Shown here one piece after another: positions 431 through 19,239 of a stretch of 32,000 nt of DNA. Under the pieces are notes generated by a model. It saw nothing but the letters and a program-made list of their open reading frames with translations, was not told the DNA's origin and did not search any database. The stretch is from positions 240,001 through 272,000 of the forward strand of contig NC_014735.1 of NCBI RefSeq assembly GCF_000172995.2, in the 5' to 3' direction. Numbering within the stretch: position 1 is the first letter of the stretch; each line of letters starts with the position of its first letter. Origin of the DNA: Halogeometricum borinquense DSM 11551. Lineage in GTDB: Archaea > Halobacteriota > Halobacteria > Halobacteriales > Haloferacaceae. The translations under genes were made by a program, and so were the position numbers.

Positions 431-1618
431 ATGGCCAAAGGTCTAGACGTCGGTACCATGAACATCCTCTCGTCCACGCCGGACGAGACGGGGACGAAGT
501 TCGTACAACAGCGGAATTCGTTCGTCGAAATCGAGTACAGCGACATGGCTGAACAGATGCTGTCGCGCAGTGACGTTTTGCACATCCGCAAGGACGACAA
601 AGTCTACGTCGTCGGCGACGATGCGCTCAACTTCGCGAACATCTTCAACAAAGAGACGCGGCGGCCCATGGAGCAGGGAATCCTTTCGAGCGAGGAGGCC
701 TCTGCAATCCCGATGATCAAGCTCATCACCGAACAGGTGGTCGGGACGGCGAACCAGCCCGGCGAAAAGCTGTTCTTCTCGTCACCGGCGGATCCTATCG
801 ACTCGGACGTCTCTACACTGTACCATCAGAAAACGCTCGAATCTATGCTCTCGGAGATGGGATTCGATCCGGAACCGATCAACGAGGGGATGGCAGTAAT
901 CTACAGTGAACTGGCTGATAACAACTTCACTGGACTCGGTGTCTCCTTCGGTGCCGGGATGACGAACATCTGCCTTTCGTACTACGCCGTCCCCGTAATG
1001 AAGTTCTCCATCGCCCGCGGGGGCGACTGGATCGACAAGCAGGCGGCGCAGGCGACGGGCACGCCGGTTGACAAAGTTACCTCGATCAAAGAAGACGATT
1101 TCGTCCTCGACTTCCGAACGGATGTCGGCGGAATTGAAGGTGCGCTCTCCATCTACTACGAGAATCTTCTCGATTATGTCGTCGAGAATATCGCAGCGCA
1201 GGTGGACGAAGGAGACGTTGAGGAAGAACTCGACGTCCCCGTCGTCGTTACCGGCGGGACGTCCCGCCCCGATGGCTTCGAGGAACTGTTCGCAAAGCAC
1301 CTCGAAGATGTCGAGATCCCCTTCTCGATAAGCGACGTTCAGAGCGTCGATGACCCACTGTACAGTGTCGCACGTGGTGCGCTCGTCGCGGCTCGCTCCG
1401 AAGAAGGATCTGACGAGCCAGCGGCACAATCGACGTCGTCTTCTGGCACGCGTTCGTCGTCCGGCAAGCGTTCGTCTGCCAGCAAACGTTCGTCGTCTAC
1501 GAGCACGAGTACGTCATCTAGCAGTACGTCGTCTACGAGTACGCCGTCTACTAATTCATCGTCTGCCGATAACAGCACGTCTACCAGCGAGAGTGCATCG
1601 TCCGGCGGCGAGGACTAA
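431..1618 (+). CDS. Actin-fold ATPase; haloarchaeal actin homolog (volactin/salactin-like) with a C-terminal Ser/Thr-rich tail
   Basis: 395 aa. Phosphate-1 motif GLDVGTMN (res 4-11), phosphate-2-like [10 protein letters not shown] (res 170-179) and adenosine motif VVVTGGTS (res 271-278) occur in the order and spacing of actin/ParM/MreB-fold proteins. A TATA-like cagtataatc lies about 30 nt upstream of the ATG. The core is acidic. Residues ~334-391 are almost only S/T with a few K/R. Confidence 0.8.
1445..1498 (+). repeat. Three tandem 18-nt units inside the actin-homolog tail, encoding [G/S][T/K]RSS[S/A] x3
   Basis: ggcacgcgttcgtcgtcc / ggcaagcgttcgtctgcc / agcaaacgttcgtcgtct encode [19 protein letters not shown] degenerate (ACG/AGC/TCG)n Ser/Thr tract follows, up to ~1603. 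Confidence 0.7.
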
Positions 1619-1687
1619 CTCTCGTCAGCTACCGCCCTCACTGCGGTTTTCGCGTGGGTTCGAGGAGAAGCGCCGATTCGGTATGAA

Positions 1688-2053
1688 TCACTGACCGTCA
1701 CGTTCTTCGATCGAATTCGTGTCGCCTTCGGATATCGCTGATGTCATCTCGGAACGGCCGGCTGGCAGCGCTTTCGTCCGCGGTATCATCGCTATCGGTT
1801 CGTTCCGTTTGACTGGCTCCGACGGCGTGCGTTCTGTTTCGTTGACCTCTTCGGTTCTTGCTGGGGAAGCGCCCGCGTCGATATGGCGGTTTTTGAACCG
1901 TCGAATCGCATCGTCCCACGTCTCACGGGGTGTATCTGACGGTTCGTACTCGGATTCTACGTCGGCGTAGCGACATCGTTTACAATACACGGCCTCGCCT
2001 CCTCCTTGAATCACGATTGTGGAGAGCGAGTTCTCACAGCGCGGACAGTCCAT
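1688..2053 (-). CDS. Small zinc-ribbon protein with a disordered acidic tail
   Basis: 121 aa. The N-terminus MDCPRCENSLSTIVIQGGGEAVYCKRCRYADVE carries CxxC-x17-CxxC. The rest is low-complexity and acidic. It is convergent with the actin homolog and divergent from the Bat-type regulator. Confidence 0.6.
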   Translation of the reverse strand: MDCPRCENSLSTIVIQGGGEAVYCKRCRYADVESEYEPSDTPRETWDDAIRRFKNRHIDAGASPARTEEVNETERTPSEPVKRNEPIAMIPRTKALPAGRSEMTSAISEGDTNSIEERDGQ

Positions 2054-2186
2054 GTGGTTGGCTTCGATTGCTCGCTAATTTAAACTAACCACTCGAAGAG
2101 CAAGACAGCGCCGTCCGTGGTCGTAAAACAAACCCAATAGTATAATGTCAGGGGAAGGTCAACTGTGACTTGCGACACGCGGTAAT

Positions 2187-4280
2187 TTGACGTTTCGTAG
2201 GGGCCGGTACGAAGAGCGACGCAACGCGGGTGACAACGTGCAAAATACACAGTCAGCGCACGAACGTGAAGCGACCTATTTAGCCGATGGAATCGTGGAG
2301 ATAGATGACAATCTCGTTATCGTCGATGCCGACGAAAAAGCGCGCGCACGGTTGGAAGCGTCGGGGATACCGTTCGGGGGACTGCCGGTGTCCGATGTTT
2401 TCGACTTCTCTACCGCTGTCGTTACAGCACTCAAAGATGGGGACAGGCGTGACATCTACGGCGACGAATTCAACACCTCGATACGATACAGCAAACGCGA
2501 GAACCTTCCGGTTACGGTGACCATTCTACCGGGAACGGAACGCTCGTATCTCCGCCTCGCTATCAGGGATAGAACCGAACGGCACGAACTCCAACAGCGA
2601 CTCTCCGGGTTGTACAATCTGGCTCGCGAGTTACTTCGAGAGCGGGACGATGACCGACTAGCCGAGTTAGCGCTTGATGCAATCGTCGGCGACTCGAATG
2701 CGCTGTCCGGTCGGATTTATCTGGCTGACTGGGACGAAACAGAGCGTCGTTCGGAAGTCACACTTCGGGCCGCGGCGACGGTTGGCGACGAGCAGCCGTA
2801 TCCGGACCCAATTGAACGGGGAGAGAGCGTCATCTGGGAGGTACTCAAACTCGGCCAACAGCGATATCGTTCGTTGTCGGCAGATGTGAGTTCCGAACCG
2901 GATGCAGCAGAACTATTCGTTCCGATTGGACGCTACGGCGTCCTCGTCCTTCGATCCTCGTCCGAACAGATCACCTTCGAACAACACGAACATGCGACGT
3001 CGATTGTCGCTTCACTCACCGCCGCACTCGAAACAGCGGGACACGAACGTCAGTTGAGAGAGCAGCAGGCGGTGTTGGAGCGCCAGAAACGGAAGCTGTT
3101 GACGGTCGCCAGACTCAACGAACTGCTCCGGGAGGTCAATCGCTCGATTATCGGGGCAGATCGAATTGATGAGTTACTCCAATGCGTCGTTGAGCAACTT
3201 TCGGATACGGAGACGTACTACGCGTCGGCGTTTGCGAGATACGACCCGGTAAGTGAAACGCTCAGTTACGTCACCTCATCGGGTGCGCTTTCGTTCACTG
3301 ACGACGAAATCGCGCTTGCAGACGAGACGCCGCTTTCTGATCTCGGTCAACGGGCTCTCGACCGTCAGTCCGCTGTCGTTGCACAAAACGCCGTATCCGT
3401 CGAAGAGTGGAAGCGTATCGAAACGACTGACACGGCTGCGGTCGAAAGCGTTGCCGCGCTTCCGGTCGTCCATCACAATCTCGTGTATGGCGTTTGTTAC
3501 TTGTTCGCTGAAACTGATTCGTTCACCGAGCGAGAGCTTTCGGTGCTGAACGAACTCAGCTCGATGCTCGGGTACGCCGTTATCTCCCGACTCCGACGCG
3601 ATCTCAACCAGTCCGGAGAATGTATCCAACTGAAGGTTCGCGTCAACGACGATACCCATCCACTTGTCGAAGTCTCTCGTTTCGACGAGACGGATATCGT
3701 TGTCGATCACATCGAATTCGATCACGCGAACGGTATCCAAGTGTACTTCGATACCGCAGGTGAGCGGGCAGAGCGGTTCCTTGATGAACTCGGAGAGCAC
3801 GACGCTGTCGCCGGTTCGGAAGTCGTCACGAACCGCCGTGACGGTGCATTGGTGAATCTCGTCCTCACCGACGACCTGTTGACGGCGCTCATCTCCTTGG
3901 ACTTGCATATCGCATCGGTAAAAGCGGACGAACAGGGCGTCATCGTTACCCTCACTGTCCCGCAAAACGTCTCGCCACGAGGCATTCTCACAGCGTTAGA
4001 AGAACAGTTCAGCGACGTATCGCTCGTGTCCCGTGGGCGCACACCGATCAACGGGGGGACTGTCGGCCGAATGCGATCGTTCGTTCGAGAGGCACTGACT
4101 GACCGCCAATACGAGGTTCTTCGGTGTGCCTTCGACAACGGGTACTACGACTGGCCACGTAACAAATCTGCAAAAGATGTGGCCGAGATGCTCGATATTA
4201 GTCAGCCGACGTTCAGCCAGCATCTCAGAGCGGCCGAGCAAAAATTACTCGACCAGTTGTTCACCCCCGATGAACTCTGA
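2187..4280 (+). CDS. Bat-type transcription regulator (PAS-like, GAF, GAF, HTH_10)
   Basis: 697 aa. The C-terminal HTH_10 signature is LTDRQYEVLRCAFDNGYYDWPRNKSAKDVAEMLDISQPTFSQHLRAAEQKL. The upstream regions look like GAF domains, and the N-terminus looks PAS-like (GIVEIDDNLVIVDADEKA). There is no in-frame ATG near the 5' end, so the start is TTG 2187 or GTG 2238. A TATA-like aatagtataatg lies ~45 nt upstream of 2187. Confidence 0.85.
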   Translation: MTFRRGRYEERRNAGDNVQNTQSAHEREATYLADGIVEIDDNLVIVDADEKARARLEASGIPFGGLPVSDVFDFSTAVVTALKDGDRRDIYGDEFNTSIRYSKRENLPVTVTILPGTERSYLRLAIRDRTERHELQQRLSGLYNLARELLRERDDDRLAELALDAIVGDSNALSGRIYLADWDETERRSEVTLRAAATVGDEQPYPDPIERGESVIWEVLKLGQQRYRSLSADVSSEPDAAELFVPIGRYGVLVLRSSSEQITFEQHEHATSIVASLTAALETAGHERQLREQQAVLERQKRKLLTVARLNELLREVNRSIIGADRIDELLQCVVEQLSDTETYYASAFARYDPVSETLSYVTSSGALSFTDDEIALADETPLSDLGQRALDRQSAVVAQNAVSVEEWKRIETTDTAAVESVAALPVVHHNLVYGVCYLFAETDSFTERELSVLNELSSMLGYAVISRLRRDLNQSGECIQLKVRVNDDTHPLVEVSRFDETDIVVDHIEFDHANGIQVYFDTAGERAERFLDELGEHDAVAGSEVVTNRRDGALVNLVLTDDLLTALISLDLHIASVKADEQGVIVTLTVPQNVSPRGILTALEEQFSDVSLVSRGRTPINGGTVGRMRSFVREALTDRQYEVLRCAFDNGYYDWPRNKSAKDVAEMLDISQPTFSQHLRAAEQKLLDQLFTPDEL

Positions 4281-12032: not shown

Positions 12033-13376
12033 TCAGTTGCTGGTGGTGGACGCCCGCTCGGACACTCGAATCTCGATGTCCTCTGCGGGTTTGAGGTTCG
12101 AGCTAGCGATTAGTTCCGGGTCGGGGTCCGAGACTAACTCGAACTCGTACCGGCGGAGTATCGACGCGATAACCGTTTTCATCTCCATGCGAGCGAATCG
12201 CATCCCGATGCAGTGACGCGGGCCACCGCCGAACGGGAAGTAGGCGTACTCCGGACGGTCTGACTCCCCGGCGAAGCGATCCGGTCGGTAGGTCTGCGGA
12301 TCGTCCCACCACGCCGAATCGCGGTGGACCACCCACGGTGACAACACCAGCGTCGTTCCGTTCGGAATTCGATATCCCGCCAATTTGACGTCTCTCGCCG
12401 TCTCTCTGAAGAACAGGTACACGGGTGGGTAGAGTCGCAGTGCTTCGTCGATAGCGCGTCCGGTCTGTTCGAGTTCCGGCAGGTCTGCGGCAGTCACGGA
12501 CCCGTCACAGACAGAATCGACTTCAGCGCGAATTCGTTCCTGTTCGTCAGGGTTCCGAGCAAGACAGAGGACCGTGTAGGTAAGCCCGAGCGCTGTCGTC
12601 TCGTGGCCGGCGAACAGGAACGTAATCAGATTGTCGCGGAACTCCGACATCGTCAGGTCGCCCGACTCGACGAACCCGACGAGAATCGACAGTAAGTCGT
12701 CGCCGCGTTCTTCTCGCGGCCGACGACGACGCTGGTCTGCCAACCCGTCTACGAACTCCCGTAGCCGCTCGATCTCCCGCCTGTAGCGTCGATTCGTCGG
12801 CGTCGGAACGCTGTCCGGGAGGAACGACCAGAACCGGTTGGTATCGAATCGAGCGAGGATGGCATCGGACGCGTCCGTAACGACCGGTTCGTCAGCCACG
12901 TCCACGCCGAACAGCGTCCGTCCGAGTACGTCGATAGTCATCGCCGTCATCGCGTCGTTCACTTCAATGACGGCTTCGTCGTGCCAGTCGTCGAGCGACT
13001 GTGACGCGGTATCGCGCATCGCGGGTACGTAGGTGTCTAACCGTTCCCGATAGAACGCCGGTTGCATCCGCGTTCGCTGGCGGTGCCACTGCTCACCCGC
13101 TGAGAGAAACAACCCGTCGCCCATCGCATCGCCCAGACTTCGAGTTAGCACGTCTCCTTTCTCGTAGGCATCGTGGTCTTCGAGGAGGATTTGCCGAATC
13201 GCTTCGGGGTCTGCAACCATGCACGCGTCGGTACCGAATACGCGGTAGCTGGCGATACGACCGTACTCGTTCCGCAGACCCTCGTAGAACTCGAGGATAT
13301 CGCGGCTCAACTCGACCGTGTTGCCGACGACTGGGAGTCCGCCATCCCCGGGCGGGTAGCCTCCTTCGGTGCTCAT
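12033..13376 (-). CDS. Cytochrome P450
   Basis: 447 aa. The heme-thiolate loop is FPFGGGPRHCIGMRFA, the I-helix motif is FLFAGHETTA, and the ExxR motif is EALRLYPP. Confidence 0.9.
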   Translation of the reverse strand: MSTEGGYPPGDGGLPVVGNTVELSRDILEFYEGLRNEYGRIASYRVFGTDACMVADPEAIRQILLEDHDAYEKGDVLTRSLGDAMGDGLFLSAGEQWHRQRTRMQPAFYRERLDTYVPAMRDTASQSLDDWHDEAVIEVNDAMTAMTIDVLGRTLFGVDVADEPVVTDASDAILARFDTNRFWSFLPDSVPTPTNRRYRREIERLREFVDGLADQRRRRPREERGDDLLSILVGFVESGDLTMSEFRDNLITFLFAGHETTALGLTYTVLCLARNPDEQERIRAEVDSVCDGSVTAADLPELEQTGRAIDEALRLYPPVYLFFRETARDVKLAGYRIPNGTTLVLSPWVVHRDSAWWDDPQTYRPDRFAGESDRPEYAYFPFGGGPRHCIGMRFARMEMKTVIASILRRYEFELVSDPDPELIASSNLKPAEDIEIRVSERASTTSN

Positions 13377-13459
13377 ACGTATCGATTTTGACGCTTGACC
13401 AACGTTGTTGTGTCGGACACGTCCGTGCTTTTATTATTAGCTGGTCGGTTCATCGGACG

Positions 13460-14137
13460 ATGCGGTATCTCCAACTTCGACTTCACCTCCCGTCGGAGGT
13501 CCGTCATCCGATGCACCAGTTTCTCAGCGAGCAAGAGTTAATTCGTCGCGCCTACCTCAGACATTGGAACTTCTCGGACCCATCTGCAGTTACGACGCTG
13601 TTCCACGTCGTCGGCGATGTCGCCGAAGGGAGCGATGAGTACATCGATGCGCTCGATGCAGTCGATACTATCGTCGAATACGACATTACGCCGGTTGACG
13701 ACCGCAGTTTCTACGTCTACGTCACCGAGGCAACGAACGGCATCGCACGAGAACTTCGAACGCTGCTCACAGACACTGATCTCCTCGTAGTCCCGCCAAT
13801 CGTGTACGGGCCAGATGGGGAGATGCAACTCGAAATCGCCGGTCACGATTCTGAACTCCAAGCGGTTGTCGCTGGCTTGCCAAGCCACGTGTCCGTCTCG
13901 GTGGACCGACTCGGCGAGTACGACGCCCACCGGGAGTCATCCGTTGCAGTCCTGACCGAACGACAGCGAGAAGTGGTCTCTGTCGCCCGCGAAATCGGTT
14001 ACTACGATGTGCCTCGCAACGCGGGTGTGCGCGATGTTGCAGACCGGTTAGACTGCTCGAAAAGTACCACGGCGAATCACTTGCGGAAGGCGGAGGCACG
14101 ACTGGTGGCGCTGTACGGTGACGGTAACACGACTTGA
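13460..14137 (+). CDS. HTH_10 (Bat/DmsR-like) transcription regulator, divergent from the P450 gene
   Basis: 225 aa from ATG 13460. The C-terminal signature is LTERQREVVSVAREIGYYDVPRNAGVRDVADRLDCSKSTTANHLRKAEARL. The 153 upstream codons of the track ORF are antisense to the P450 gene and Arg-rich, so they are rejected. Confidence 0.8.
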   Translation: MRYLQLRLHLPSEVRHPMHQFLSEQELIRRAYLRHWNFSDPSAVTTLFHVVGDVAEGSDEYIDALDAVDTIVEYDITPVDDRSFYVYVTEATNGIARELRTLLTDTDLLVVPPIVYGPDGEMQLEIAGHDSELQAVVAGLPSHVSVSVDRLGEYDAHRESSVAVLTERQREVVSVAREIGYYDVPRNAGVRDVADRLDCSKSTTANHLRKAEARLVALYGDGNTT

Positions 14138-14431: not shown

Positions 14432-14451
14432 GGATTAGATTAATCTAATCC
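14432..14451. promoter_or_regulatory. Perfect 20-bp palindrome GGATTAGATTAATCTAATCC, a candidate DtxR-family operator upstream of the metal ABC operon
   Basis: The sequence equals its own reverse complement. It lies 54-73 nt upstream of ATG 14505 and 16 nt upstream of a TATA-like gtattatataatta (14468-14481). The TTAG/CTAA half-site cores resemble the DtxR/IdeR box. Extra ATTAG half-sites occur at 14456, 14479 and 14494. Confidence 0.5.
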
Positions 14452-14504
14452 TTATTTTAGATGGCAAGTATTATATAATTAGCTAGGACACCGATTAGTC
14501 GAAG

Positions 14505-15608
14505 ATGGACGATACGAACCAATCACGTTTGCAGAAGCACTTCTCACGGCGGCAAGCTCTTACTGCAGGTGCAGGTCTTGTTACTACTGGTCTCGCTGGC
14601 TGCATGGGGAGCGGCACCGCTGAAAACAACGAATCGAACGGCTCCGTTACCGGTTCGCCAAGCGGTTCTGATGATTCTGAATCGCAAACGCTCTCTGTCG
14701 CGTCGTTCTTCAGTTTCTACGACTTCGCACGCAAGGTCGCACGCGACACGCCGGTCGAGATAGAGAATCTCATTCCGACGGGTCTGCACGGACACGGATG
14801 GAAGCCGAACGCGAGCATTACGAAGAAGATTATCGAGGCTGACGCCTTCATCCACGTCGGTGAGGACTTCCAGCCGTGGGCTGACCGAGCGATCAAGACG
14901 ATCAAAGGAGACAACGTCGATACCCAACTTATCAACGTCCGCGAGGGTATCGAACTGGTTGATCTCGCTGCCAGTCTCGATCCTGAAGAAGAGGGTATCG
15001 GTGAGAATCGCGGAAAGGACCCGCATTTCTGGCTTGACCCGAATCGTGCGGCTCAATCGGTCGATAACATCGCCGATGGGCTTGCGAAACTCGCACCCGA
15101 GCACGAGGACGCCTTCCGGAAGAACGCCGAGACGTACAAGACGGACGTTCTCGACCGCATCGATCAAGACTACGCGGACATTTTCGACCGCGCAGATCGA
15201 GATGTCGTTCAGTTGGCAGCGCACAACGCCTTCCAGTACCTCGGCGTCACCTACGGCGTCGAGATGCGGCCCTTGGTCGTCAATCTCGCCGCCAGCGGCG
15301 ACGTCAAACCGACGGATATCACCGAAGCCAAGCGCGTCATCCAGGAAAACGATATCAACCACATCGGTGCCGCAGTGTTCGAAACGCGTCGTCCAGCCCA
15401 GCAACTGCTTACCGAGACGGATGTCGAATCGTACTTCCCGGTAACGCCGTACGCTGGCGTCCGCAAAGACTGGGTCGAGATGGGCTGGGGGTACGAGGAA
15501 ATCGCCTACAACATCAACATGCCCACCTTCGAGGTCGTCCTCGGTAACAAGGCGCCCAAAGAGGTCGGTCCCGACGGCTGGGCGGACCAGTGGAGGAACT
15601 TCGAATGA
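14505..15608 (+). CDS. Metal (Mn/Zn-type) ABC transporter substrate-binding lipoprotein, TroA/ZnuA family
   Basis: 367 aa. The Tat-like signal plus lipobox is SRRQALTAGAGLVTTGLAGC, followed by a Ser/Gly/Asp linker. Family motifs are GLHGHGWKPN and DPHFWLDP. The inter-lobe loop is acidic rather than His-rich. Confidence 0.9.
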   Translation: MDDTNQSRLQKHFSRRQALTAGAGLVTTGLAGCMGSGTAENNESNGSVTGSPSGSDDSESQTLSVASFFSFYDFARKVARDTPVEIENLIPTGLHGHGWKPNASITKKIIEADAFIHVGEDFQPWADRAIKTIKGDNVDTQLINVREGIELVDLAASLDPEEEGIGENRGKDPHFWLDPNRAAQSVDNIADGLAKLAPEHEDAFRKNAETYKTDVLDRIDQDYADIFDRADRDVVQLAAHNAFQYLGVTYGVEMRPLVVNLAASGDVKPTDITEAKRVIQENDINHIGAAVFETRRPAQQLLTETDVESYFPVTPYAGVRKDWVEMGWGYEEIAYNINMPTFEVVLGNKAPKEVGPDGWADQWRNFE

Positions 15609-16390
15609 GCACGCAGAACGCCGAGAACGCCGCAAGTACCGGCATCGTAGACAGTTCCTACCCGGTTATCGAACTCTCAGAGGTTGATTTCGGCTACACG
15701 GCAGCCTCGGTCGTCAAGGACATCTCGCTTCAGATAGACTCCGGGGAGTACGCCGCAGTCGTCGGACCGAACGGGTCGGGCAAATCGACGCTGATGAAGT
15801 TGATGTTAGGGTTGCTCCGTCCGGACAAAGGTGTCACCAAACTGTTTGGCGAGCCCTCGCATCAGTTCGACGACGGCTCCCGAATCGGCTACGTCGCTCA
15901 ACACGCGAGCGCGTCCAAGGATATGCCGATAACCGTCCGCGAGGTCGTCAAGATGGGCCGATTCCCACACGTCGGCTTCGGCCGCCTTTCCGATGAAGAC
16001 TGGCAGATTGTCGATCGTGCGCTCGACACAGTCGGTATGACGGCGTTCGCAAACCGTCGTGTGACGCAGTTATCGGGTGGCCAGCGTCAGCGAGCGTTCA
16101 TCGCTCGCGCACTCGCCAGCGAGGCTGATCTGCTCGTCCTCGACGAACCGACCGTCGGCGTCGATATCGAATCTGTCGAGTCGTTCTACGACCTCCTCGA
16201 CTCGTTGAACGAGGACGGAATCACCATCCTCCTCATCGAACACGACCTGAGTGCAGTTACCGAACACGCAGACCGAGTCATCTGTCTCAACCGCGAGATA
16301 TACTTCGACGGGCCGACGTCGGAGTTCGTCGAAAGCGATGCGTTGGCTCGCGCGTTTGGGACGGCAGCGAACTTCCTGGGTGATCTCTGA
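15605..16390 (+). CDS. Metal ABC transporter ATP-binding protein (ZnuC/MntB-like)
   Basis: 261 aa from ATG 15605, which overlaps the SBP stop (ATGA). Walker A is GPNGSGKST, the signature is LSGGQRQR, and Walker B is LLVLDEP. Confidence 0.9.
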   Translation: MSTQNAENAASTGIVDSSYPVIELSEVDFGYTAASVVKDISLQIDSGEYAAVVGPNGSGKSTLMKLMLGLLRPDKGVTKLFGEPSHQFDDGSRIGYVAQHASASKDMPITVREVVKMGRFPHVGFGRLSDEDWQIVDRALDTVGMTAFANRRVTQLSGGQRQRAFIARALASEADLLVLDEPTVGVDIESVESFYDLLDSLNEDGITILLIEHDLSAVTEHADRVICLNREIYFDGPTSEFVESDALARAFGTAANFLGDL

Positions 16391-17400
16391 TGCTGGGGAT
16401 GGGTCTGTCTCCGCTTCAGACCGGGACGCCGGATTCCCTTCTCGCCCCGCTGTATTGGATTCTCCAGTTCTGGTCGGGGATTATGACGTGGCTCGCACAA
16501 TATACCGGCCTCGAGTTGCTTCAGTACGGGTTCATGCACCGCGCCATTCTCGTCGGGTTGTGTATCGGCGTGATGGCACCGCTTATCGGGACGTTCCTCG
16601 TTCACCGTCAGTTAGCGTTGATCGGTGATGCGCTCGCCCACACCGGTTTCGCTGGGGTCGCTGTCGGATTGTTCCTCAACGCCGTCCTCGACCTCGGCGT
16701 CTCGCCGTACCTGACCGCGGTTATCGTCGCCATGATTGCCGCCTTGCTCATCGAACTTATCTCGGAGGCCACAGACGCCTACAACGACGTTTCGATGGCA
16801 ATCGTCCTCTCGACTGGATTCGCTTTGGGGACGACCTTGATCAGCATCAACGCCGGCGGTCTCGCCGTCGGTGTCAAGCAGTTCCTCTTCGGCAATCTCT
16901 CGACGGTTTCGCCCGACAGCGCCGCAATATTGCTGGTGTTGTTCGCCGTCATCATCGGCGTCGTCGGACTCACGCGTAACCAGTTGCTGTACGTCACGTT
17001 CGACGAGACTGCGGCGGCGGTTTCGGGACTCTCGGTAAGTTGGTACAACCGAATTATGGTGATGCTGACCGCGATGGTTGTCGTCGGCGCGATGCAGATC
17101 ATGGGTGTCATCCTCGTTGCGGCCATGCTCGTCGTTCCCGTCGCCGGTGCAGCGCAGGTCTCCCGCAGTTTCAACGAATCGTTGCTCGTGTCGGTCGTTC
17201 TCGCCGAACTGGCCGTCATTCTGGGAATCGGTGCCTCCTACTACGGCAAAGCGACGGCCGGGGGCGTGATTGTCCTCACTGCGGTCGCTATCTACATCGT
17301 CACTATCCTCTTGGGCAAACTTCAGACCGCCGTCGGTGAGGAATCGACGCCCGAAATGGGCAGCATCGACGTCGGACAGACCGAATCGGCCGGAGACTGA
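16390..17400 (+). CDS. Metal ABC transporter permease (ABC-3 / ZnuB family)
   Basis: 336 aa, highly hydrophobic and multi-pass. The ATG shares one nt with the upstream TGA. The hydrophobicity pattern is typical of ABC-3 permeases (LIGDALAHTGFAGVAVG). Confidence 0.9.
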   Translation: MLGMGLSPLQTGTPDSLLAPLYWILQFWSGIMTWLAQYTGLELLQYGFMHRAILVGLCIGVMAPLIGTFLVHRQLALIGDALAHTGFAGVAVGLFLNAVLDLGVSPYLTAVIVAMIAALLIELISEATDAYNDVSMAIVLSTGFALGTTLISINAGGLAVGVKQFLFGNLSTVSPDSAAILLVLFAVIIGVVGLTRNQLLYVTFDETAAAVSGLSVSWYNRIMVMLTAMVVVGAMQIMGVILVAAMLVVPVAGAAQVSRSFNESLLVSVVLAELAVILGIGASYYGKATAGGVIVLTAVAIYIVTILLGKLQTAVGEESTPEMGSIDVGQTESAGD

Positions 17401-17467
17401 AACGGTGTCTGCAACCAGACAGTAGGTGTATCGAGCCTCCAAACACCCGCCGTTCAGACAAATTGAG

Positions 17468-18187
17468 ATGAGCGAACCCGACTCAGATCCTCCGAATGCG
17501 ACGGACTCTACGCCCCCGCTGACGCCGAAGATGGAGGACTATCTCCGTCATATCTATCGACTCGAACAGGAGAGTAACAGTCGGGTTTCGAATTCGGATA
17601 TCGCTGATCGCCTCGGCGTTACGAGAGCAACAGTTTCGAGCATGCTCGACACGCTCTCGGAGTCCGGACTGATCGAACGCGAACGGTATCGTCCGATCCG
17701 ACTCACAGACGACGGGGTCGAGCACGCACTGGGGGTGATCCGGAGGCACCGATTGGTCGAAACGATGCTCTCGGAACTGTTCGATTACACGATCAGTGAA
17801 GTTGACGCCGAAGCCGACGTTCTGGAACATCACCTCAGTCCTCGGCTTTGCCGAGAGATCGAACGGGAACTCGATATGCCGGATATCGACCCACACGGAG
17901 ACCCGATACCGGATGCGAATCTCGATATCCCCCACGCGGAGGACGCCACGTCGCTGGCTGAAGTCGCAGAATCGTCGTGCGTCGAAGTGACCCGGATCTT
18001 GACGCAGGACGACGAGACGCTCGAATATCTCGTCTCGGCCGGCATCGAACCGTCAGTTCGTCTCTGTCTCGACGAGAAGACTCCAATCGGCATGCTGACT
18101 GTCACTGTCGTCGAGACCGGACGACAGATGGGCCTTCCGCGACCGGTCGCCTCGCAGATTCTCGTCACCGCGGTCGATGGCGACTAG
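17468..18187 (+). CDS. DtxR/SirR/MntR-family metal-dependent transcription repressor with a C-terminal FeoA/SH3-like domain
   Basis: 239 aa from ATG 17468 (GTG 17426 is an alternative). Motifs: MEDYLRHIYRLEQ, wHTH NSDIADRLGVTRATVSSMLDTL, and dimerisation/metal region RRHRLVETML...HHL. The C-terminus VEVTRILTQDDETLEYLVSAGIEPSVRL looks FeoA-like. Confidence 0.85.
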   Translation: MSEPDSDPPNATDSTPPLTPKMEDYLRHIYRLEQESNSRVSNSDIADRLGVTRATVSSMLDTLSESGLIERERYRPIRLTDDGVEHALGVIRRHRLVETMLSELFDYTISEVDAEADVLEHHLSPRLCREIERELDMPDIDPHGDPIPDANLDIPHAEDATSLAEVAESSCVEVTRILTQDDETLEYLVSAGIEPSVRLCLDEKTPIGMLTVTVVETGRQMGLPRPVASQILVTAVDGD

Positions 18188-18331
18188 GCTGATTCTTGCG
18201 GTCAGAAATTGCGTGGAACTGCTGGATCGGATGATTTCAGGTTCTACGGGTCGGATTTACCGTTGTTGATTCGGTTTGTCGTCACTGCTCTAGCCGACAT
18301 TACTTCCCTCTAACCACATTTTTAGACTAGT

Positions 18332-18345
18332 CTAATCTATAATAT
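18332..18345. promoter_or_regulatory. Perfect 14-bp palindrome TTAGACTAGTCTAA, a second candidate operator with the same TTAGA-N4-TCTAA architecture
   Basis: The sequence equals its own reverse complement. A TATA-like ctataatata (18347-18356) follows immediately. It sits 145 nt downstream of the DtxR-family gene and ~380 nt upstream of pgpA. Confidence 0.4.
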
Positions 18346-18726
18346 AGATGAATAGAATTAAGTTGTTGTATGCCTGATTACTGATTGCGTTCCGATGATC
18401 TCGGGACGCGAGCAGTATCGAGTGCCAAGTGAGTTCCTGCAACACGGGATGGTCGAGTTCGGACATTGGTTCCTCTCCCCGTGTTACTATCCTTTCCATG
18501 CAACAGACAACTCTCAACTCCGCACGTCGTTCGCTTGCTTCCCCGCGTTTTGCCTGTCCGCTGCACATGGGTGGACCGCAGACTGGTAGGCCGTTATGAG
18601 CGCCTTCGCTACTATCGCGGTGACCACCATCGCCACAGCGAAGCAGCAAAATACTCTGGGGCGAAGATCACAACCACGTCGTGGACTCGGTGTCTCCGAA
18701 CTATCGTATTGGGGAGGGATCTCGAT

Positions 18727-19239
18727 TTGAACCGACGTGAGTCTCTCTTGACCGTCGGTGGACTCGGGCACGCACCCGTCGCTCCGGGGACGTTTGGCTC
18801 GCTCCCGCCAGTTGCGGTCGCTCTGGTTTTTCTGACGACACCGCTTCCGATCTGGCAACTGAACGTGGTTCTGCCAACTCTCGCGCTCGTACTCTCGGTT
18901 GCGTGCGTTCGATTCGGTCACTGGGCGGAGGGATACTGGGGATGCAAGGACCCGCGGACGGTCGTCGCAGACGAGGCAATAGGACAGACGCTTCCGCTGC
19001 TCTTTCTCCCGTGGCATCATTGGGGCTACGGGGAGATGGCTCTCTGGAACGTACTCCTCTTGTTTACCGCGGTGACCACGTTCCGACTGTTCGATGTGAC
19101 GAAACTCCCGCCGATGCGAATGCTCGAACGCCTCTCCGGCGGATGGGGAATCTTGATCGATGATCTCGTTGCGGGCGTCTATGCGACAGTCTTCTCGCAC
19201 CTGCTCATCCGATTCGTCTGGCCGCCCGTACTCGGGTAA
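18727..19239 (+). CDS. pgpA: Phosphatidylglycerophosphatase A (PgpA family)
   Basis: The core motifs are GGLGHAPVAPGTFGSL, VVADEAIGQ, FRLFDVTKLPP and GGWGILIDDLVAGVYA. There is no in-frame ATG near the conserved N-terminus, so the proposed start is TTG 18727 (170 aa). The start is uncertain. The upstream part of the 257-aa track ORF is basic and not protein-like. Confidence 0.7.
   Translation: MNRRESLLTVGGLGHAPVAPGTFGSLPPVAVALVFLTTPLPIWQLNVVLPTLALVLSVACVRFGHWAEGYWGCKDPRTVVADEAIGQTLPLLFLPWHHWGYGEMALWNVLLLFTAVTTFRLFDVTKLPPMRMLERLSGGWGILIDDLVAGVYATVFSHLLIRFVWPPVLG

Follow-up and report, generated by a model that had tools for sequence, protein, structure and literature searches.

Why does the same palindromic box stand both in front of a metal-uptake operon and behind it in the haloarchaeon Halogeometricum borinquense DSM 11551? 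We analysed a stretch of 32,000 nucleotides (nt) of this genome (contig NC_014735.1, positions 240,001 to 272,000; hereafter the window, whose own numbering is used throughout). In it, one palindrome, O1, lies upstream of an operon for an ATP-binding cassette (ABC) metal transporter and a DtxR-family repressor, and another, O2, lies downstream of the repressor gene. We consider it probable that both palindromes are SirR-type operators, recognised by a Mn-sensing DtxR-family regulator, with the core TTwGA-N4-TCwAA, O1 serving the operon with its own repressor and O2 serving a separate rightward promoter with a product of about 200 nt. Both comparative and published evidence lend this operator reading good support, and from them we infer protein binding and metal dependence.

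Two palindromes share a rare box

O1 (14432-14451, no strand assigned) is a perfect 20-bp palindrome, GGATTAGATTAATCTAATCC, with the core TTAGA-N4-TCTAA at 14435-14448, and its centre lies 63.5 bp before the ATG of the substrate-binding protein gene. O2 (18322-18335, likewise without strand) is a 14-bp palindrome, TTAGACTAGTCTAA, and the repressor stop codon lies 135 bp before it. Both consist of TTwGA half-sites with a spacer of exactly 4 bp, O1 reading aTTAGA-TTAA-TCTAAt and O2 reading tTTAGA-CTAG-TCTAAt. The initial annotation of this DNA had described two perfect palindromes of TTAGA-N4-TCTAA architecture, and both are present, but it had put the second at 18332-18345, which is 10 nt too far to the right. 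Its TATA-like stretch directly after the second palindrome was also found, as tcTATAATATAGATG occupies 18336-18350, immediately 3′ of O2.

The inverted pair with this spacing had been reported at two places in the 32 kb, and our count of the exact pattern TTAGANNNNTCTAA (TTAGA-N4-TCTAA) likewise gave two matches, O1 and O2. In 100 dinucleotide-preserving shuffles of the window, the pattern occurred 0.01 times on average and in no case twice or more. When two mismatches were allowed, the number of matches (13 versus 6.8 expected) was unremarkable. One copy with a single mismatch, TTAGACTGCTCGAA at 14048-14061, lies inside the coding region of an HTH_10 (HVO_0513-type) regulator gene (13001-14137) and is probably a chance match.

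The box is conserved in front of orthologous operons

The gene run behind O1 had been annotated as substrate-binding protein, ATPase, permease and DtxR-family repressor, and Pfam searches confirmed this order, with all four genes on the + strand. The first gene (14505-15608) encodes a metal ABC transporter substrate-binding protein of the ZnuA/TroA family (PF01297, E = 5.5e-46), whose matches to the NCBIfam Zn and Mn substrate-binding families all stayed under the cut-offs. It is followed by the genes for the ABC transporter ATPase (15590-16390; PF00005) and an ABC-3 family permease (16390-17400; PF00950, E = 9.9e-56). The last gene (17468-18187) encodes a 239-residue DtxR-family repressor probably of the Mn type, a SirR-like paralogue with PF01325, PF02742 and FeoA/SH3-like domains. 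The metal transported by this operon is probably Mn.

Orthologous operons were collected from haloarchaeal plasmids and from contigs encoding orthologous repressors, which gave 14 species in 13 genera: Halogeometricum borinquense and Halogeometricum limi, Haladaptatus, Natribaculum, Halocatena, Halomontanus, Natrinema, Halorubrum, Halomicrobium, Halobellus, Halobacterium (pNRC200), Halopiger, Halovenus and Halanaeroarchaeum. The box (a/g)TTAGA-N4-TCTAA(t/a) was found in all 14 operons, with its centre 58.5-63.5 bp upstream of the initiation codon of the first gene, that for the substrate-binding protein. Across these 14 operon promoters and four promoters of the O2 type described below, the half-sites are invariant or near-invariant and carry high information content. 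The spacer and the upstream flank carry about none; the upstream sequence is unrelated between species, and the spacers seen include TTAA, CTAG, TGAG, CGAA, TCAG, CGGT, TGTG, TACA, CAGG, TTCT, ATAT and TAAG. Within the orthologous loci of about 9 kb, the box is essentially confined to the operon promoter.

The box was absent from the three distant metal-ABC paralogues that we examined, on Haloferax volcanii pHV4, on Haloferax mediterranei pHM500 and in Halorientalis, indicating that it is specific to this operon clade and not a general property of AT-rich haloarchaeal promoters. Comparison of the orthologues identified no conserved promoter or box in the 67 nt that separate the permease gene from the repressor gene. 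Co-transcription of the repressor gene from O1, and hence negative autoregulation, would therefore be the simplest reading.

The palindromes match the published SirR motif

In Hfx. volcanii, chromatin immunoprecipitation sequencing with SirR-HA gave peaks at the regulator's own promoter, at mntH (HVO_2674) and at the Mn/Fe ABC system MtsABC (HVO_2397-99) (Martinez-Pastor et al. 2023, PMC10783522). The motif common to these peaks is TTTwGAnnnnTCwAAA, which the authors state to agree with the earlier predictions of Leyn & Rodionov 2015 (PMC10783522). We found that O1 and O2 are instances of this motif with w = A. O1 stands at the promoter of a probable Mn-uptake operon that has a ZnuA-family gene first and a SirR-like gene last, and O2 precedes no recognisable Mn gene. 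The window sites share with the Hfx. volcanii SirR box the TTwGA inverted repeat, the 4-bp spacer, the kind of target (a Mn/Fe ABC transporter, at O1) and a regulator with DtxR and SH3-like domains, whereas Hfx. volcanii SirR sits in a sirR-TMEM165 unit and the window regulator is the operon-linked last gene. It follows that the ATTAGA half-site is not newly defined, as the initial annotation had supposed, since the motif had already been given in PMC10783522.

The annotation had also taken the TTAGG-based DtxR/IdeR box as its comparator. That iron box is 19 bp long, with TTAGG and CCTAA 9 bp apart, as in the tox operator TTAGGATAGCTTTACCTAA (PMC524172). The window sites fall outside this description because their spacer is 4 bp and their half-site ends in A instead of G, so that the N4-spaced SirR box fits them and the 19-bp TTAGG-N9-CCTAA box does not. 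Both types of site have TTAG-containing inverted half-sites and a metal-loaded dimeric repressor of the DtxR family, but DtxR/IdeR senses iron through Met/Cys ligands and the window protein is probably of the Mn type. The 19-bp box of DtxR/IdeR binds two dimers.

The iron regulator TroR of Hfx. volcanii recognises the motif TTTAGGC-NNN-CCTAAA and represses its regulon from well upstream of the start codons (PMC10783522). Its box belongs to the same family and has the same spacing (TTAGG-N4-CCTAA), but its half-sites have G at position 5, where those of the window boxes have A. On the Halomicrobium sp. LC1Hm plasmid pLC1Hm-01 (locus L007), a TroR-type iron box, TTAGGCCAGCCTAA (TTAGG-N4-CCTAA, 2536-2549), was observed in a divergent intergenic region beside another ABC substrate-binding protein gene (1310-2530, minus strand). 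It lies about 200 bp from the SirR-type box at 2754, and the presence of both in a single intergenic region shows that the two box types coexist as distinct sites.

A third comparison comes from Halobacterium NRC-1, where the mRNAs of zurM/zurA/ycdH (VNG6262G/6264G/6265G) rise in a sirR deletion strain with Mn (PMC1779511; summarised in PMC3600143; Kaur et al. 2006 as reported there). Our only match on pNRC200, locus L009, has 74% nucleotide identity, with its box, ATTTGATACATCTAAA, likewise centred 63.5 bp from the start codon. It is very probably the zurM/zurA/ycdH operon, an assignment made from the replicon and the gene products and not from a locus-tag table; the VNG6xxx tags we take to denote pNRC200 genes, and Halobacterium sirR is presumably VNG0536G. 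The Halobacterium transporter operon is orthologous to that of the window and has its box at the same offset, whereas Halobacterium salinarum SirR is encoded away from the transporter and acts in trans, and the window regulator is encoded in the operon. The initial annotation had placed the Halobacterium regulator next to the Mn transporter, which is at odds with the absence of any repressor gene beside the pNRC200 transporter orthologue.

The operon encodes a probable Mn-type repressor

The repressor, read from the ATG at 17468 to 18187, is 100% identical to the Halogeometricum borinquense DSM 11551 protein named 'Mn-dependent transcriptional regulator'. Its winged helix (PF01325), dimerisation and metal-binding domain (PF02742) and C-terminal FeoA/SH3-like domain all scored above the Pfam cut-offs. 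The closest solved structures are the Mn sensors 5zr4 (E = 4e-36), Deinococcus radiodurans DR2539, 6o5c, SloR and ScaR, with IdeR and DtxR scoring lower; the matches to 5zr4, 6o5c, SloR and ScaR span the full length of the protein. We take 5zr4 to be M. tuberculosis MntR and 6o5c to be MtsR. The top NCBIfam model was MntR, at a score under its cut-off (163 versus 350 bits). The segments MEDY (D24) and EADVLEHH (D117, E120, H121) align with those of the Mn sensors and contain putative Mn-type ligands, for which acidic residues where DtxR has Met10 and Cys102 and an E-H pair would be expected; the ligand positions were assigned by analogy with the DtxR and MntR structures, not by superposition.

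Promoter geometry is fixed relative to the palindrome

Directly behind O1 lies Box A, TTATTTTAGATGG (14452-14464, + strand), a conserved T-rich/TwGAT(A/G) block of the form TTTnGAT(A/G)G with a putative promoter function. In each of the 18 promoters, 14 of operons and four of the O2 type, we found exactly 16.5 bp between the palindrome centre and the start of the TwGAT(A/G) block. Its copies in the window lie at 14458-14463 and 18345-18350, and TAGATG stands at this same +16.5 offset at O1 and at O2. Box B, ATTATATAATTA (14470-14481, + strand), is TATA-like, lies 24-35 nt before the ATG and is conserved as CTATAT in the orthologues. On the 3′ side of O2, the TATA-like stretch is TATAATATAGATG (18338-18350, + strand).

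Box A is also a direct repeat (TTAGAT) of the left half-site of the palindrome, 22-23 bp away or about two helical turns, and it could either serve as a TATA box or offer a second dimer a third half-site. We favour the former, in which Box A would be the TATA box and the right half-site would occupy the position of the TFB recognition element (BRE). In that case TFB/TBP would face competition from a bound dimer, and the transcript would carry a leader of roughly 20 nt, which would account for the conserved CTAGCCGACG ahead of the ATG as well. If, on the other hand, Box B is the TATA box, the mRNA would be leaderless and the O1 centre would lie near -63.

O2 heads a conserved element of about 230 nt

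The box, the TATA-like stretch and about 230 nt of sequence at O2 are conserved in four species of three genera, namely Hgm. borinquense, Halocatena marina, Hfx. mediterranei and Hfx. mucosum. In the window, this unannotated orphan element occupies 18316-18565 on the + strand and comprises the operator, the promoter and a putative transcript of about 200 nt that would start at about 18365-18390. Alignments showed that conservation starts at the box and extends rightwards for about 230 nt in all four species, with box spacers of CTAG, CTAG, TACC and CATA. In Halocatena marina, the identical box lies 175 bp after the repressor gene.

A blastn search of plasmids with window positions 18300-18720 gave a single match, Hfx. 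mediterranei pHM300 (E 4e-26). A pattern scan of a genome collection with the element core AGTTCCTGCAACACRGGRTGKTC, a pattern that is probably too strict, matched Hfx. mucosum and Halocatena marina only. With an nhmmer profile we found the element at five places (E = 1e-60 to 1e-72), the fifth being a second Halocatena marina strain, and no other strong match among the fetched loci; since the profile was built from the same four copies, its own scores are circular, and the independent support comes from the blastn match and the alignments.

Both Haloferax copies of the element are flanked on one side by a DUF7847 gene, joined in Hfx. mediterranei by a small hypothetical gene, and on the other by a convergent bioD, and we identified no SirR-type operon near either copy. 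This indicates that the box travels with the element and not with the repressor gene.

Two features stand out within the conserved sequence. A hairpin, GCGTTCCGA-tgatc-TCGGGACGC (18387-18409, + strand), has its stem kept in all four sequences; it takes the general form GCGTTCCG-loop-CGGRRCGY, in which U-A/U-G swaps preserve the stem while the sequence and length of the loop vary freely. It is followed by a core, AGTTCCTGCAACAC (18432-18445, + strand), that is identical in the four species.

To the right of the element lies a PgpA-like gene (18709-19239, + strand; PF04608, residues 95-247 of a long open reading frame, ORF). The long ORF (18466-19239) has no ATG start, and its approximately 80 N-terminal codons, which overlap the conserved element, do not look coding. 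The PgpA domain begins at about 18748, and the real gene probably starts at one of the TTG codons at 18709, 18727 or 18748, which are the only starts available. Transcription from the O2 promoter may read through into this gene, but gene and element are not conserved partners, as we found no PgpA-like gene beside the element in loci L003, L010 and L011. The second regulated rightward promoter at about 18380 that had been proposed is therefore upheld by the conservation of box, TATA-like stretch and downstream sequence in four species, whereas the transcription unit assigned to it, 18380-19239, is not, because the PgpA-like gene is not conserved.

A model for control at O1 and O2

We propose that, when metal is plentiful, the metal-loaded repressor dimer would bind O1. 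The right half-site abuts a TATA-like box, and a bound dimer should hinder the recruitment of TFB/TBP or RNA polymerase. Occupancy of O1 would stop both the uptake genes and the synthesis of the repressor, amounting to negative autoregulation. O2, with the same box and geometry before a second TATA-like box, would control a separate rightward promoter whose product is predicted to be not the PgpA-like gene but an unannotated transcript of about 200 nt, for which a non-coding nature is likelier than a coding one.

Several observations weigh against parts of this model. First, if the operon mRNA is leaderless with Box B as the TATA box, O1 near -63 would lie upstream of BRE/TATA, where in archaea activators are more usual. 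Repression from there would depend on a second dimer bound at Box A or on some other mechanism. Second, the 83-bp gap upstream of the canonical sirR of Natronomonas pharaonis (L020, 2918-3000) contained no TTwGA-N4-TCwAA box, indicating that SirR autoregulation is not universal among haloarchaea. Third, no repressor gene adjoins three of the 14 operons (those of Halomicrobium, Halobellus and Halobacterium pNRC200), although they too have the box. As for the O2 element, it is known in four species only, and the predicted fold of the whole element is no more stable than that of shuffled sequence (z = -0.23), its 5′ hairpin being the one conserved structure.

The three operons without a repressor gene bear directly on which protein would bind the boxes. 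A SirR encoded elsewhere is evidently able to serve the box there, and the operon-encoded paralogue is thus not its sole possible binder; in Hgm. borinquense, there may be cross-talk with a separately encoded SirR. In its strong form, this alternative states that canonical SirR binds the boxes in trans and that the 239-residue paralogue has a different or redundant role, which we regard as unlikely. It would agree with Halobacterium, where the regulator is sirR and its gene is not beside the transporter orthologue, and with the O2-type element lying away from any such operon in two Haloferax genomes. Moreover, the window repressor is 60-78% identical to its operon-linked orthologues and only 46-48% identical to named SirR proteins (Natronomonas). 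Against this, the paralogue is the last gene in 11 of the 14 box-bearing operons, and the TxxTVSSM segment around its recognition helix is also present in canonical SirR. Given this common segment, the box could be recognised by either protein, and the two explanations do not exclude each other. The claim that both sites are operators of the 239-residue repressor therefore stands as regards their SirR-like operator properties, while the binder may also be a canonical SirR that acts in trans.

The nature of the O2 product

A small non-coding transcript under a SirR-type operator is the most likely product of the O2 promoter. We also put forward, as a tentative possibility, that the O2 box controls an undescribed Mn-responsive small RNA or His/Cys-rich micro-protein, produced under Mn shortage, once SirR has left the DNA, and common to Halogeometricum, Halocatena and Haloferax. 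Searches against Rfam 15 gave no match at gathering scores in the whole window and none at E <= 1 in 18250-18750, and a tRNA scan found no tRNA. In the small RNA catalogue of Hfx. mediterranei there is no entry at pHM300 82.2-82.4 kb (PMC5852579). Pairing of the element with the 5′ region of the substrate-binding protein mRNA was also considered; the predicted duplexes were no better than those of background windows, and the idea of this target was dropped.

A small protein encoded by the element, from either a forward ORF of 64 residues (18395-18589, MISGREQYRVPSEFLQHG...) or a reverse ORF of 44 residues (MSELDHPVLQEL...), is a weaker alternative than the non-coding transcript, and we consider it unlikely. 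The forward frames of Hgm. borinquense, Hfx. mucosum and Hfx. mediterranei do share the His/Cys-rich stretch (P)(D/S)EFLQHG(V/M)VEFGH..(P/S).CYY, but start codons, frames and lengths differ between the species, and there is a frameshift between the two Haloferax copies. In 1.84 billion representative proteins the forward ORF had no true homologue, a repetitive spurious ORF and a cadherin-like protein being all that matched. The reverse 44-residue ORF was called by a gene finder, and of the two candidates it alone was found in an exact look-up, without a name; in our reading of the alignments, the three Halocatena substitutions in HPVLQEL are all synonymous in its frame. Three synonymous changes are, however, not significant across six frames. 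The reverse ORF was also without a homologue in 5.8 billion clusters, and it leaves the conserved hairpin and promoter unexplained.

Alternatively, O2 could be a relic without present function, either a duplicated or decayed operon promoter or the 5′ end of a lost gene. The promoter part of the element weakly resembles operon promoters (nhmmer E = 0.08-0.55) and the ORFs in it are inconsistent between species. The element is also rare, as pattern scans gave two genome matches and no true metagenome match: the three metagenome matches to GCGTTCCG-N30-45-AGTTCCTGCAACAC were all unrelated coding sequence and thus due to chance. Yet about 230 nt have been kept across three genera in differing genomic contexts, and the half-sites of the box and the stem of the hairpin are intact while the spacer and the loop have diverged, a pattern that argues for selection rather than decay. 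A decaying relic is thus quite unlikely.

Finally, the proposal that O1 is no operator but a hairpin of the intrinsic-terminator type (stem plus TTATTTT), at which transcription of the preceding HTH_10 regulator gene would stop, was rejected as scarcely credible: although a terminator scan flags 14432-14451 with its T-run, the upstream gene ends 295 bp before the palindrome, the terminator-like sites found were fewer than expected (3 versus 4.4), and the palindrome is kept where the upstream genes of the orthologues differ or diverge, whereas the T-run after it is not. Termination in archaea is not known to require an AT-rich stem.

Relation to other metal-responsive systems

The arrangement at O1 resembles those of Treponema troABCDR, a metal ABC operon that encodes its own DtxR-family repressor TroR (PMC2628430), and of the Archaeoglobus fulgidus MDR1 operon. 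All three have their own repressor, a dyad operator at the promoter and negative autoregulation, which for the window operon is predicted. They differ in that Treponema TroR uses another operator sequence and a bacterial sigma-70 promoter. MDR1 also has another operator sequence, and its operators are reportedly at or after the start site, whereas the window box is upstream of the TATA-like boxes. As the operator box was already known, the operon part adds little that is new; it extends the published Mn-repressor box to an operon-linked SirR paralogue, on plasmids and longer contigs, in at least 14 species. Footprinting, and work on the geometry of repression in archaea, could draw on the alignment of 18 box sites, in which TwGAT forms a third conserved block with a constant offset.

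The only novelty is the orphan element behind O2, which is rare and carries a putative transcript. In bacteria, small genes controlled by metal repressors are known from MntR-mntS and Fur-RyhB, and these offer an analogy for O2 alone, as in each case the box of a metal-uptake repressor guards, or at O2 would guard, a short stand-alone transcript without an annotated gene; neither has any sequence relationship to the O2 element. If the element is transcribed and responds to Mn, it would join a very short list of small archaeal transcripts for which both the transcription factor and the signal are defined. A Mn-responsive O2 product would then be a haloarchaeal counterpart of Fur-RyhB or MntR-MntS, and the SirR regulon would reach beyond transporters to an effector that acts post-transcriptionally or as a small protein.

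Genomic setting of the operon

The three distant metal-ABC paralogues share an AT-rich inverted repeat, AATAAT...CTTATTAyC, which lies 20-70 nt before the start codons of their substrate-binding protein genes (L017 about 2830-2890 in Hfx. volcanii pHV4, L018 about 2650-2720 in Hfx. mediterranei pHM500, and L019 about 2100-2165 in Halorientalis marina). This repeat is a candidate operator of a different, perhaps zinc-responsive, regulator.

In the window, the neighbouring genes include those for a volactin (archaeal actin) homologue, a Bat-type GAF/HTH_10 regulator and a cytochrome P450 (431-1618, 2187-4280 and 12033-13376). None of these is related to metals, so that the operon forms an island in an unrelated context. 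In other genomes, the operon is often flanked by transposase or integrase genes (L005 83-1759, L006 6012-7688 and L025 5775-7385, as well as L003 1-540 and L005 8135-8424), and many of its copies, from several haloarchaeal families, are on megaplasmids. The flanking mobile genes and the megaplasmid locations suggest horizontal spread of the whole cassette of box, operon and repressor.

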